Assembly: GCA_964449605.1 (NCBI GenBank)
Contig: CAYUZG010000001.1
Coordinates: 1 to 48,279 of the forward strand
Length of the DNA stretch: 48,279 nucleotides
Source of the DNA: an uncultured Verrucomicrobiota bacterium
Lineage (GTDB): Bacteria; Auribacterota; JABMQX01; JAFGEW01
Direction of reading: 5' to 3'
Shown here in pieces: positions 9,518-29,930 of the stretch. Numbering within the stretch: position 1 is the first letter of the stretch; each line of letters begins with the position of its first letter. A program made the translations under genes and the position numbers. Below the pieces are notes generated by a model, which searched no databases, had not been told where the DNA came from, and was given only the letters and a program-made list of their open reading frames with translations.

Positions 9518-10534
9518 ATGAGATCGCAGACCTGCCAGTATCGGACTGTGCTTGGCCGGCCCCGTATCGGGGCGCTTGCCGCGCTGCTTGCGGCCGTGGT
9601 CGCGTGCGCGCTCTCGGGCCCTGCGGACGCGACGGGATGGGGCCAGGGAAGCTCGGGGGGCTCGAGCGGGTCGGAACGCACTATTACCATCGATCCGGTG
9701 CCGCGGTTCGACGAGGCCGATGTCCGCGCGCTCGTCGAGAAACCGTCGATCGCCGAGTTCAGCGTGGACAACCCGCGGATCGCCAAGGGCGGCTCGGCCA
9801 AGCTCACCTGGCGCGTCGAGAACGCCGACAGCGTCAGCATCTCGACCATCGGCTCGGTGAGCCACTCCGGCTCGCGGGCAGTCTCGCCACAAGCGAAGAC
9901 GACGTATGTGCTGACGGCCAAGAACAACAACGGGACCGTCACCAAGGCGGTCACGGTGGACATCACGAACCTAGCCATCATCGCCACGGTGCATAAGATC
10001 GACACGACTCCTGGCACGGTCATGGTGCTCGGGAACGTCGCCTACGACTTCGTCGCCACGTCGAACTCGGCGCGGTGGGCGAGCAGCAAGCCGCTGTCGT
10101 TCGGCGGATACGGCGGCACAAACGGCTGGGCCAGGAAGATGAACAGCGTCCGCGCCGAGGACAACAAGGACTACCAGAACGTGCTCCAGGTCGAGCCCGA
10201 GCACAAGACGAACGGCTTCGTCTACGGCGAATACAGCGTGACCATCCCGCCCAACGGCACGTTCACTGCGACCGTTGGGCTGACCAAGGGGCACGGCTCG
10301 CCCGATGGCGCGACGGTAACCATCCAGGTCCGTGGCCCGGCAGTCGGCCGCCGGAAGGCGCCGTGGAAATCGGTCGTGGTCAAGACCATCAAGCACGACG
10401 GCCGCCTCGACACGATCACGGCCGACCTCAAGCCGTGGGCGAACAAGACGGTGACGATCCGGCTCGTCGTGACGGCGGGCCAGAGCTTCAAAGATGACGT
10501 GGTGCTCTGGATCGCGGCGCGCGTCCTTAAGTAG
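9518..10534 (+). CDS. secreted (possibly lipo-)protein with an Ig-like domain; first gene of the 20-kb array
   Basis: Strong RBS (AGGAGGGAACA-ATG). Signal peptide IGALAALLAAVVAC with a possible lipobox. Ig-like segment: KGGSAKLTWRVENADSVSISTIGSV..G.RAVSPQAKTTYVLTAKNNNG. Confidence 0.65.
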   Translation: MRSQTCQYRTVLGRPRIGALAALLAAVVACALSGPADATGWGQGSSGGSSGSERTITIDPVPRFDEADVRALVEKPSIAEFSVDNPRIAKGGSAKLTWRVENADSVSISTIGSVSHSGSRAVSPQAKTTYVLTAKNNNGTVTKAVTVDITNLAIIATVHKIDTTPGTVMVLGNVAYDFVATSNSARWASSKPLSFGGYGGTNGWARKMNSVRAEDNKDYQNVLQVEPEHKTNGFVYGEYSVTIPPNGTFTATVGLTKGHGSPDGATVTIQVRGPAVGRRKAPWKSVVVKTIKHDGRLDTITADLKPWANKTVTIRLVVTAGQSFKDDVVLWIAARVLK

Positions 10535-10570
10535 ACGGCGACGGGCTTTGAGGCAACGAGGAGAAGACCG

Positions 10571-27863: not shown

Positions 27864-27884
27864 ACGTCAGGCGAGGCAGTCTAC

Positions 27885-29930
27885 ATGTCTCTGCAAGAAC
27901 AGGGCGGGGCATGGCCCGATCGCCATGTCCCGCCCGTTCAGCCCTTTCAGCCACTGCAGGCAGCAAGCAGGCGGCCGAGAAAGCCCCGCCCCTGGTTTGT
28001 CATCATCATCGTGGCGGCTGTGGCGGCCGTGGGCGGTCTGCAGAAAGGATGCAAAGACACCTGGGAAGAGCATCATAAGACGGCCCAGAGGCTGTACGAG
28101 GCGGGCCGCTACGAGAAAGCCTGCGACGAAGCCGAGAAGGCCCTCGACAAAGCTGAACGCCTCTTCGGCCCCGACGACGGGCGTGTCGGGTCGGTCCTGT
28201 GCACGCTGGGCCGGATCCGCGCCGCGCAGTCGCTGTATGAGGAGGCCGAGCACTGCTTCAAACGCAGTCTGCGGATCTGCAAGTCGGCTGCCACAGACGA
28301 TCCCCAGGCCGTCGGCTACGTCGCTGCCGATCTAGCGGACCTGTATTTCCGGTTGGGGAGATACGATGAGGCCGAGCCGCTTGCCGTGCAGGCCCTGGAC
28401 GCCACAAGGAAGCATTTCGAGCCCGACGATCCCCAACTTGCCACAGCGTGCCGGATCATGGGCAACCTGCACCGCATCCGCGGCCGGTACGACGAGGCGG
28501 AGCGGCTGCTCAGACAGGCCGTGGCGATCGACACGCGCGCCGAGGGCAAGGACAGCATCGGAGTGGCCGTTGATCTAAACGATCTTGGCGTGCTGTTGAC
28601 GGCCCAGGGTCGGCACAACGAGGCAGAAGCCGCGCTGAGGCAAGCCGTCGCGACCAACCGCAACAACCGGGGCGCCCGGCATCCGGAGATCGCCACCAAT
28701 CTCGGCAATCTCGGCGACGTCTACGCCGCCCAGGGGCGCTTCGAGGAGGCCGAGACCGCCTACGAAGAAGCGCTCTCTATCGCCGAGGAGGCGTATGGGC
28801 CCGAGCACCTGTCAATCACGCACCAGTTGGCGGGGCTCGTCGGTGTGCGGGCCGCCCAGGGACGGTTCGCCGAGGCCGAGAGACTGTGCGCACGCATCCT
28901 GCCAATCCACCAACGCGTATTCGGGCCCTATGACACCAGAGTGGTGGTTGATCTTCTCGATCTCGGCTGGTTCTGCGAGACCCAAGCGAAAGCTGACGAA
29001 GCTGAAAAGCACTACCGGCGCGCACTCGAGATCGCCGAGCACGAAGGAGGCGAGAACACCCTCGGCGCCGCCACGGCCCGCTTGGCCCTTGGGGCTCTGT
29101 ATGCCAAGCTGGGTCGGTTCGACGAAGCCGAGCCCCTTCTTGCCCAGTCCCTCGCAACGAGAATCGAGCTTCTGGGAGGTGACAGCATCGAGACAGCCAG
29201 CGTGCGGTACTGGCTGGGACGCCTCTACAGAGGAACCGACCAGGACGAGAAGGCTTGCGAGCAGCTCGAGCAAGCCCTACCGGTCTACGAGCGCTCCTAT
29301 GGACCCGAGCACAGCGAGACAGCCTACGTGTGTGGCTACCTGGCTGGGGGTTATCTGAACCTTGAGCGGATAGAGGAATCGGAGACCTGCTACAAGAGGG
29401 CGCTCGAAGTGCTCGAACCCGCCGTCGCCGAAGATCCCGGAATCATCATGCGCTGCTACTACGGCTTGTCGGAAATCGCATGCAAGCGTGGCGATATCGA
29501 AACCGCGTATGCCCGAGCGCGGAAACGGATTGAAATCGCCGAGCAGTACTTGCCCGAAGACCATCCCTGGCGATTGAGCGCAGCGACAGCGTTGGCGAAC
29601 GTGCACGTTGCCGACGGCAAGCTGGCCGAAGCGGAGGCCGTGTGTGAGAAGATCATCGAGGAATATGAGAAGCTCCTGGGACCAGACACAGCCGAGATGG
29701 CTCTGGCGCTCGACTTGACGAACGAGGCATGCGAAGAGGCCGGTCTCACTGACAAGGCCCAGGAGTACGCCGAGCGCGCGGCCGCCATCCGCGCCAGAAT
29801 CAACGACGCGTCCGCCGACGAGACGCCGGGCGACGAAACGTTGGGCGACGAGACCTCAGCTGCCGCGACAACCCCACCGGACGAGACCGTGCCGAGCACC
29901 GAAGACGACAAGGCCGCGTCAGAGGACTAG
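27885..29930 (+). CDS. membrane-anchored TPR protein (kinesin-light-chain-like TPR_12 repeats); last gene of the array
   Basis: Single TM (PWFVIIIVAAVAAVGGL) after a short N-terminus. About 12 repeats of ~42 aa follow, each carrying G(R/K)(Y/F)(D/E)EAE (LGRYDEAEPL, RGRYDEAERL, QGRFEEAETA, QGRFAEAERL, LGRFDEAEPL and others). Acidic C-terminus. Confidence 0.8.
   Translation: MSLQEQGGAWPDRHVPPVQPFQPLQAASRRPRKPRPWFVIIIVAAVAAVGGLQKGCKDTWEEHHKTAQRLYEAGRYEKACDEAEKALDKAERLFGPDDGRVGSVLCTLGRIRAAQSLYEEAEHCFKRSLRICKSAATDDPQAVGYVAADLADLYFRLGRYDEAEPLAVQALDATRKHFEPDDPQLATACRIMGNLHRIRGRYDEAERLLRQAVAIDTRAEGKDSIGVAVDLNDLGVLLTAQGRHNEAEAALRQAVATNRNNRGARHPEIATNLGNLGDVYAAQGRFEEAETAYEEALSIAEEAYGPEHLSITHQLAGLVGVRAAQGRFAEAERLCARILPIHQRVFGPYDTRVVVDLLDLGWFCETQAKADEAEKHYRRALEIAEHEGGENTLGAATARLALGALYAKLGRFDEAEPLLAQSLATRIELLGGDSIETASVRYWLGRLYRGTDQDEKACEQLEQALPVYERSYGPEHSETAYVCGYLAGGYLNLERIEESETCYKRALEVLEPAVAEDPGIIMRCYYGLSEIACKRGDIETAYARARKRIEIAEQYLPEDHPWRLSAATALANVHVADGKLAEAEAVCEKIIEEYEKLLGPDTAEMALALDLTNEACEEAGLTDKAQEYAERAAAIRARINDASADETPGDETLGDETSAAATTPPDETVPSTEDDKAASED

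Follow-up and report, generated by a model that had tools for sequence, protein, structure and literature searches.

Paralogous components are known to assemble stepwise in the bi-component leukocidins, in Hbl/Nhe and in complement C6-C9, and the tetratricopeptide repeat (TPR) domains of Hop and CHIP bind EEVD tails. Type V (FimA-E, Mfa1-5) and sortase pili are encoded by operons of tandem beta-sandwich paralogues with protease-dependent maturation, and in bacterial gasdermin-protease operons a membrane-directed protein stands beside a dedicated protease. In E. coli, YdbH, YnbE and YdbL constitute an intermembrane lipid bridge (PMC11126948, PMC13464000). The locus treated here, or its relatives, share traits with each of these systems. 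It is an array of genes at positions 9518-29930 of a stretch of 48,279 nucleotides (called the window in its full length) from an uncultured Verrucomicrobiota bacterium (assembly GCA_964449605.1, contig CAYUZG010000001.1), which an earlier note had proposed as an undescribed extracytoplasmic system of secreted paralogues, secreted TPR proteins and membrane anchors. Here we show that six Sec-exported paralogues of the array make up a conserved cassette not described before, of which the array is the local form, with lineage-specific accessories.

A conserved cassette of six Sec-exported paralogues

The genes are numbered g1 to g13 along the array, and the cassette comprises g2, g3, g4, g5, g8 and g12. 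For g4 more than 566 homologues were found, ~50% identical across phyla, all of them unnamed and free of Pfam domains. Searching 1.84 billion representative proteins with a profile extended the superfamily to 1240 clusters (50% identity) at E<=1e-3. Scanning one genome per species (GTDB species representatives) revealed 129 carriers of a g4 relative, 80 loci of which were fetched; all locus counts refer to these fetched loci. They belong to Verrucomicrobiota, Eisenbacteria, Acidobacteriota, Armatimonadota, Desulfobacterota, Bacteroidota, Spirochaetales, Chloroflexota, Dormiibacterota, Gammaproteobacteria, Campylobacterales and Anaeromyxobacter, altogether more than 10 phyla, and one of the loci is from the cultured Agaribacillus aureus BMA12.

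Nearly all family open reading frames (ORFs) share the strand of g4 (478 of 480), and every locus ORF best matches its positional counterpart in the window, with median identities to the window proteins of 46% for g4, 38% for g8 and g12, 34% for g5, 29% for g3 and 26% for g2. The commonest orders are g2-g3-g4-g5-g8-g12-X, where X is an accessory gene described below (15 loci), and the same order without X (11 loci). Four layouts were distinguished: type A, the most common, with a long g2 in g2-g3-g4-g5-g8-g12, usually followed by X; type B, YdbH-like-g2-g3-g4-g8-g5-g5-YnbE/YdbL fusion-x228, in five species (L001, L016, L020, L028, L051); type C, g1-g2-g3-g12-g4-g8, in Desulfobacterota; and type D, g1-g2-g3-g4-g5-(small membrane gene)-g8-three or four TPR genes-g12, in the window, L004/L092, L005 and L006. 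Orthologues of g2 form the first gene of the core cassette in most loci, g3 has a positional orthologue in 69 loci beyond the close relatives L004-L007, and positional orthologues of g8 are 38-43% identical across phyla. The conservation of gene order across phyla therefore excludes a chance juxtaposition. The earlier note had suggested examining gene neighbourhoods in the Planctomycetes-Verrucomicrobia-Chlamydiae (PVC) group and candidate phyla; the core order g2-g3-g4-g5-g8-g12 recurs in dozens of unrelated genomes, far beyond PVC. The spread of the cassette came after the six paralogue classes had separated.

Four members are full-length paralogues with mutual BLAST E-values of 1e-19 to 1e-62 and an hhalign probability of 100%: the exported g4 (13426-15273, + strand; 615 amino acids), which is the best-conserved member, g5 (15277-17211, +; an ORF of 644 amino acids), the exported g8 (18730-20850, +; 706 amino acids), with an extra N-terminal segment of ~100 residues, and the exported g12 (25152-27863, +; 903 amino acids), which is nearest to g5. 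The exported g3 (12147-13415, +; ~410 amino acids) is a shorter relative; it has the N-terminal domain D1 in common with g4, g5, g8 and g12 (hhalign probability 97-99%), followed by a different C-terminal part, and its translation probably begins at codon 13, an internal Met. Also exported, g2 (10571-12094, +; 507 amino acids) is distantly related at both ends, since hhalign aligns its residues 92-235 with the N-terminal domain of g3 (85%) and its residues 328-470 with the C-terminus of g5 (76%); its tail is very acidic (14 of the last 22 residues). The six paralogues of one family named in the earlier note were in this way recovered, by BLAST for the four full-length members and by hhalign for g3, with g2 joining them weakly.

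Two of the full-length members deviate in structure. The first ~60 codons of g5 may be untranslated, because its hydrophobic signal-like segment begins only near residue 62; this extension is atypical in GC content at second and third codon positions (GC2, GC3), and the orthologue in L004 begins ~58 codons later. The product of g12 equals a g5-like protein with an insert of ~340 residues (amino acids ~286-628, nucleotides ~26007-27035) between domains D2 and D3, residues 65-341 and 364-638 of g5 aligning by BLAST to residues 6-285 and 629-902 of g12. This insert consists of a TPR module that is homologous to g9-g11 over their C-terminal third, g12 residues 331-523 matching g10 and g11, and of a Gly-rich linker; Pfam places TPR at residues 387-446, with TPR_2 at 387-415 reaching 30.0 bits against a cut-off of 27. 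Conserved C-terminal strand motifs are (Y/F)xDE(L/V)P in g5 and g12 and YLxLxPP in g4. Hydrophobic N-terminal segments are found in most members of each paralogue family, a crude motif scan detected a lipobox-like motif in just 2-9 members per family of 49-84 sequences, and among the conserved core proteins there is neither an ATPase nor an inner-membrane component nor a recognisable outer-membrane barrel.

None of the six paralogues matched a family in Pfam, NCBIfam, PADLOC or PHROGs, apart from TPR in g12. When 29 g4 orthologues were compared with Pfam at E<=1, no family was common to more than three, and none of those shared was a toxin family. Sequence and profile searches of the PDB with g4, its orthologue profile, a profile of long members, g1 and X returned nothing, or low-complexity and HExxH-local matches. 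An AlphaFold2 model of g4 (overall predicted local distance difference test, pLDDT, 75.8) shows D1 (residues ~25-185) as an alpha/beta domain, D2 (~188-375) with long beta-hairpins, a helix and an unresolved loop, and D3 and D4 (~376-597) as two confident beta-sandwiches. The low-pLDDT loop at 281-333 is conserved like the folded domains (28% of columns at least 90% conserved) yet unresolved, and therefore points to an interface or a conformational switch.

Foldseek comparison of the full g4 model with PDB and BFVD gave generic matches to immunoglobulin (Ig), FN3, pilin and complement macroglobulin (MG) domains with TM-scores of at most 0.33. Those to BACOVA_04078/04077 had probabilities of 0.98-1.0, with TM-scores of only 0.17-0.33 and a root-mean-square deviation of 9-11 A. 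As to A2M/thioester proteins, complement C3 and C5 matched at a TM-score of ~0.09, through MG-like sandwiches only, and a Pfam A2M match was absent; as to anti-phage defence, there was no PADLOC match and no relative on viral contigs (IMG/VR). In the literature on DUF7910, AsmA neighbourhoods and multi-component pore formers no description of the cassette was found. The claim that the system is undescribed thus stood up to searches of Pfam, NCBIfam, PADLOC, PHROGs and PDB and to Foldseek, none of which placed the paralogues in a characterised family, and among the defining features of known families only TPR repeats are present, in accessory genes. We rate the cassette as lying outside the known kinds of system, while it may later prove to work like one of them.

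Accessory genes in relatives and in the window

In most lineages the terminal gene encodes X, a protein of ~460 amino acids with a signal peptide, in which HExxH is present in 22 of 22 sequences and the pattern HExxHTQ...YGxDxxH...E is conserved. Its resemblance to WLM/Aspzincin is merely weak and local, and X thus represents a new zincin-like family. Other domains are joined to the paralogues themselves: the g8-class protein P0225 ends in a caspase-like Peptidase_C14 domain, and in the g12-class proteins P0432 (L091 10001-13894) and P0429 an SGNH/GDSL hydrolase is inserted at the D2-D3 linker, exactly where g12 of the window carries its TPR. Repeats of the latter kind occur in 8 of 37 long superfamily members, and some other lineages have TPR at the same D2-D3 site of g12.

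In type B loci a YdbH-like gene (Pfam 4.7e-51) precedes the cassette and a YnbE/YdbL fusion (DUF1318 1.3e-23) comes after it, with the conserved lipoprotein-like x228 of 228 amino acids next in line. The genes are overlapping or tightly spaced, and the arrangement, limited to one subclade, is retained down to 61-66% g4 identity. YdbH-like (PF11739), YnbE (PF13617) and YdbL (PF07027) domains are absent from the window genes and occur only in type B loci such as L001.

Through a distant match on a plasmid a sister cassette came to light, whose five paralogues have no signal peptides; the carriers are Pararhizobium qamdonense, Rhizobium sp. Root483D2, Mesorhizobium, Starkeya, Amycolatopsis and Maricurvus. 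Here too the genes keep a conserved order, with ~55% identity between Alphaproteobacteria and Actinomycetota. It is represented by five paralogues on plasmid p2 of P. qamdonense T808 (L088, NZ_CP119567.1 821721-838785), by Amycolatopsis sp. cg5 (L089) and, in a looser version, by the gammaproteobacterium Maricurvus nonylphenolicus (L090). A protein of 565-588 amino acids in this clade has the invariant motifs NQGxAGTC, GxHxV and KNPQ, which we take to be a papain-like set (clan CA proteases), a reading confirmed by no database. Three kinds of protease, the papain-like one on this presumed reading, and a lipase are attached to the scaffold family in different lineages. Lectin-type neighbours or domains accompany some loci: L003 has a Jacalin gene upstream, a long g2 contains DUF7910, and RicinB is encoded close to the sister cluster. 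Phage or plasmid carriage of the cassette was considered and rejected, with no relative on viral contigs and the one distant plasmid match only.

Among the accessories of the window, g1 (9518-10534, +) encodes an exported Ig-like protein of 338 amino acids, possibly a lipoprotein (VVAC). Residues 73-175 match the Ig-like virion protein phrog_2155 at 2.7e-13, the sole match in PHROGs, and there is no Pfam match at cut-off. In L004-L006 and the type C loci (Desulfobacterota) the cassette starts with a homologue of g1. An origin of g1 as the detached N-terminus of long g2 proteins was rejected at an hhalign probability of 1.8%.

Three tandem genes, g9 (20899-22185, +; 428 amino acids; Pfam TPR_2, TPR_19, TPR_16), g10 (22251-23594, +; 447 amino acids) and g11 (23694-25073, +; 459 amino acids), encode exported TPR paralogues, which are 34-39% mutually identical, exceed the gathering score for TPR_2, TPR_16 and TPR_19, and have orthologues in L004 and L005. 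Elsewhere the secreted HExxH protein or homologues of YdbH/YnbE/YdbL are found instead. Dedicated TPR scaffolds, as proposed earlier, hold in so far as free TPR genes recur in close relatives, but they are confined to this lineage among the fetched loci. The nearest orthologues of g12, P0392 (89%) and P0243 (79%), are ~740 amino acids long and free of TPR, and their genomes have four free TPR genes versus three in the window; the TPR unit therefore entered g12 recently. As direct fusion evidence at the level of sequence, g12 indicates that the TPR proteins probably act on the paralogues.

The paralogues of this lineage also differ from those of type A in the number of acidic residues among the last 22, with 12.8 versus 2.5 in g2, 9.5 versus 3.4 in g3, 6.2 versus 2.9 in g4, 7.7 versus 4.1 in g5 and 7.7 versus 2.8 in g8. 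By analogy with the binding of EEVD by Hop and CHIP, acidic tails in the lineage with free TPR proteins suggest an interaction of the TPR-clamp type. Like Hop/CHIP and the SycD/LcrH chaperones, g9-g11 are TPR proteins; they are encoded beside their presumed clients, which have strongly acidic C-termini in this lineage only, and the TPR of g12 weakly matches SycD/LcrH; unlike these, g9-g11 are periplasmic with signal peptides, and the score of the g12 TPR with TIGR02552 (SycD/LcrH class II chaperones) is 19.8 bits against a cut-off of 104.8.

The remaining genes of the array are outside the conserved core. The products of g6 (17208-17699, +; 163 amino acids, four transmembrane segments) and g7 (17835-18698, +; a polytopic membrane protein of 287 amino acids behind a weak ribosome-binding site) are lineage-specific, with GC3 of 0.68 and 0.75 versus at least 0.89 in g1-g5, g8 and g12. 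The fetched loci yielded no homologue of either, not even L005, an 88%-identical relative, and g7 is likewise absent from L004/L092. Between them lies a gene remnant (~17726-17808, +), MAWMKHVW..VVYVDELPPPGQEDGSE*, in which a g8-type start, identical to the start of g8 in L005 (MAWMKHVW), is fused to the g5/g12-type C-terminal tail VVYVDELPPPGQEDGSE*. From its sequence the remnant appears to be a rearrangement scar beside the g6/g7 insertion, and 17208-18729 looks like a recent lineage-specific insertion with g6 and g7 as passengers. At the end of the array, g13 (27885-29930, +; 681 amino acids, one transmembrane segment, GC3 0.77) has 11 TPR_12 repeats of the KLC/NPHP3-like kind (Pfam TPR_12 1e-104) and no homologue in any fetched locus; in the JW889 metagenome-assembled genome (MAG), with the same M24/tyrS neighbourhood, a spermine-synthase-like gene occupies its position. 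It is a non-conserved adjacent gene, whose membership in the system is not supported. As core components g6, g7 and g13 were rejected on these grounds, and with them the membrane anchors that the earlier note had counted as part of the system.

Layout of the array and its flanks

With ~66% GC in the window, six-frame ORF lists are crowded with shadow ORFs, and real genes were therefore told from these by codon-position GC. Between 9518 and 29930 there are 13 ORFs (g1-g13) and the remnant; the ORF count of 14 given earlier was too high, while the remnant and the location of every credible ORF on the + strand were borne out. In-frame GC3 is 0.89-0.95 for g1-g5, g8 and g12 and 0.85-0.87 for g9-g11. 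Gaps of 3-99 bp, as first described, separate the genes with the sole exception of g6-g7, where the 135 bp contain the remnant, and the ATGA overlap of g5 and g6 at 17208-17211 is present. Terminator-like sites are not enriched (8 observed versus 10.1 expected from shuffled sequence), those on the + strand are two weak ones, and neither lies between array genes, in agreement with the earlier reading that a convincing internal terminator is missing. Purine-rich ribosome-binding sites precede most starts, much as stated before. The translations of g1-g13 also match the features assigned at first: nine signal peptides (g1, g2, g3, g4, g8, g9, g10, g11, g12), the signal-like segment of g5 delayed by ~60 amino acids, and three membrane proteins, of which g6 and g7 are polytopic and g13 has one transmembrane segment. 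The three tandem TPR paralogues and the KLC-like protein are likewise real, with TPR matches in g9, g10, g11 and g13, to which the interior of g12 is added.

Downstream, an M24 peptidase gene and tyrS are located on the minus strand, as reported before. The upstream gene had been read as glycosidase-like; it is in fact a minus-strand gene at 6559-9141 with a DUF5060 domain, divergent from g1, and the + strand ORF at 6421-9267 (948 amino acids) was rejected as a shadow ORF (GC1 0.88, GC3 0.67). Farther upstream, 3495-6071 (+) encodes a protein of 858 amino acids with an N-terminal transmembrane anchor, TPR repeats and a Peptidase_M1-like domain without HExxH. It was considered as the missing protease and rejected: HExxH is lacking, a divergent gene intervenes and no homologue occurs in the fetched loci.

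A sigma-54 promoter for g1 was also dismissed, with no site in 9141-9518. In L004 (the JW889 MAG) g1 is immediately preceded by genes for a PAS histidine kinase and a sigma-54 activator (3127-5789), which have no equivalent in the window. The only zero-mismatch sigma-54 -24/-12 consensus of the window (TGGCAC-N5-TTGC) is found at 47805-47819 (+). A Bat/MoxR-type cluster at 34198-46130 (-), with a DUF4175 protein (1356 amino acids), BatA+VWA, a MoxR AAA ATPase and transglutaminase+DUF3857, looks ordinary and unrelated to the array.

A predicted hetero-oligomeric assembly and its rivals

A fixed order in more than 10 phyla, together with the lack of a described family, probably means that the cassette encodes a multi-protein assembly of the envelope or exterior not known so far. 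Judged from sequence, an undescribed Sec-exported hetero-oligomeric assembly is the explanation we prefer, with somewhat better than even confidence. The coat, pore or matrix named in the earlier note would be a reasonable role for it. The envelope or surface assembly suggested by the earlier note is hence kept as an undescribed conserved system, but not in its composition with the membrane anchors g6, g7 and g13. After Sec export, one subunit per class would co-assemble into a single beta-rich complex seated at the surface of a membrane, which may belong to the producing cell (outer membrane and periplasm) or to a target. The shared N-terminal domain and the long beta-hairpin domain with its invariant loop would serve as the element of oligomerisation or insertion, and the two C-terminal Ig-like sandwiches (D3, D4) would form the exposed part. 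The D2-D3 linker of the g12 class would be the insertion site for a variable module, TPR here and an SGNH hydrolase elsewhere. Assembly or activation would be controlled by lineage-specific accessories, in most lineages the secreted HExxH zincin-like protein; in the window g1 and the three free periplasmic TPR paralogues may take over this role, the latter holding the acidic C-terminal tails of g2, g3, g4, g5 and g8 as chaperones or scaffolds.

Several points weigh against this explanation. Co-assembly is deduced solely from synteny and the fixed sets of paralogues, association with a membrane is presumed, none of the core subunits being a lipoprotein, and the paralogy of g2 depends on probabilities of 76-85% only. 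The g4 model is moderate (pLDDT 75.8 overall, about 40-65 in the hairpin domain), and a model of the N-terminal half was poor (pLDDT 56) and without a Foldseek match. The link between acidic tails and TPR is a correlation over four related genomes only. The sister clade has no signal peptides, so the fold is not intrinsically extracytoplasmic, and the window variant encodes no protease, so the protease theme derives from relatives.

A further-reaching version of the preferred explanation is offered only tentatively. It holds that the six ancient paralogues might form a new kind of self-assembling, Sec-exported hetero-oligomeric machine, membrane-inserting or envelope-spanning, with interchangeable modules (TPR, SGNH lipase) displayed by the g12-class subunit, that its assembly might be triggered by lineage-specific proteases or TPR chaperones, and that Rhizobiales, Actinomycetota and others have a cytosolic sister of it. 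Strong conservation and the setting beside ydbH speak for a function in the envelope of the producer itself; the associations with protease, lipase and lectin speak for an attack complex, and so does the existence of a sister clade that lacks signal peptides.

An attack complex in the narrower sense, i.e. a multi-component pore-forming or membrane-attack-like toxin, is the strongest of the alternatives, albeit unlikely. Such a toxin would be released, activated by protease and assembled stepwise on a foreign membrane, with a lipase or protease as payload and a protist, a fungus or another bacterium as target. The cassette has in common with leukocidins, Hbl/Nhe and the C6-C9 membrane attack complex that paralogous Sec-exported subunits are co-encoded in an operon without a dedicated ATPase or secretion machine, that its relatives are linked to proteolysis, and that beta-hairpin-rich domains are predicted, the modelled D2 with its long hairpins and conserved unresolved loop possibly being such a domain. 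The recurrent association with proteases and SGNH lipase agrees with this, as do the lectin-type neighbours and domains (Jacalin in L003, DUF7910 in a long g2, RicinB at the sister cluster) and the patchy occurrence across phyla at ~50% identity, suggesting horizontal transfer. However, neither sequence nor fold relates the paralogues to the aerolysin/ETX-MTX2, leukocidin, MACPF/CDC, binary-toxin or gasdermin families; no toxin was among the Foldseek matches to PDB of full g4 or its N-terminal half, a weak test given the low confidence of D2. The subunits are larger than those of the known systems (~600 amino acids, with two Ig-like domains), and pore formation is hypothetical here. Sequence and gene order are unusually conserved, far above what is usual for toxins, diderm carriers would need a route across the outer membrane, for which the Bacteroidota versions do not have the extra length of a type IX secretion system (T9SS) C-terminal domain, and one subclade is embedded in a ydbH...ynbE/ydbL envelope operon. 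To the gasdermin-protease operons there is a likeness in the pairing with a protease and in the caspase-like (C14) domains of cassette relatives, but a gasdermin domain is lacking and the cassette proteins are exported, far larger and present as multiple paralogues.

Quite improbable in our view is a fibre or pilus-like heteropolymer, in which the paralogues would be stalk, adaptor, tip and anchor, joined by strand exchange or transpeptidation after protease cleavage; it would work like type V (FimA/Mfa) or sortase pili while belonging to neither family. The Foldseek matches of best probability are the S. pyogenes T-antigen, the Bacteroides FimA-like BACOVA_04078/04077 and the B. anthracis TIE protein, and these weak resemblances of g4 to FimA-like proteins and Gram-positive pilins fit an operon of tandem beta-sandwich paralogues of graded length with a protease and conserved C-terminal strand motifs in g5, g12 and g4. 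Their TM-scores of 0.13-0.33, however, are those of any tandem beta-sandwich. In contrast to the known pili, the subunits are not lipoproteins, most members being without a lipobox, there is no LPXTG motif, sortase or Pfam pilin domain, D1 and D2 have no counterpart in pilins, and the cassette is spread over many phyla; its sister clade without signal peptides could not make a surface fibre in this way.

Slightly less credence still is given to an accessory complex of envelope lipid homeostasis or outer-membrane biogenesis, in which the paralogues would build a structure in the periplasm or close to the outer membrane that works with AsmA-like bridges such as YdbH-YnbE. It draws on the five type B species, in which the cassette stands between the YdbH-like and YnbE/YdbL fusion genes and keeps this arrangement down to 61-66% g4 identity, and on the fusions to SGNH/GDSL lipase. 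Co-transcription, deduced from the layout, would place the cassette in one operon with homologues of an established intermembrane lipid bridge, which is envelope-located and Sec-dependent (PMC11126948, PMC13464000). But the ydbH association is limited to one subclade and so probably arose once, AsmA-like genes are missing from the window and most loci, as are YnbE and YdbL genes from the window, and the paralogues are dissimilar to these proteins; relatives also exist in Actinomycetota, which have no outer membrane, and without signal peptides. That there is no system at all, only a chance run of secreted hypothetical genes or spurious high-GC ORFs, has a negligible chance: shadow ORFs are indeed many at 66% GC and one misled the reading of the upstream flank, but the TPR genes, g1 and the core paralogues have an in-frame GC3 of 0.85-0.95, homologues number in the hundreds, and the gene order kept across phyla refutes it by conserved synteny.

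If the preferred explanation of an undescribed hetero-oligomeric assembly is true, a widespread multi-protein system exists that is built wholly of unannotated families, present in at least 129 species representatives of more than 10 phyla and belonging to a superfamily of ~1240 clusters at 50% identity. It is open to experiment in cultured carriers, namely Agaribacillus aureus BMA12 for the exported form and, for the sister form, Pararhizobium qamdonense T808, Rhizobium sp. Root483D2 and Amycolatopsis sp. cg5. That the set of six paralogues is fixed indicates a defined, as yet unseen architecture, and knowledge of its structure and role would add a new bacterial envelope or secreted assembly and would annotate thousands of 'hypothetical proteins'.

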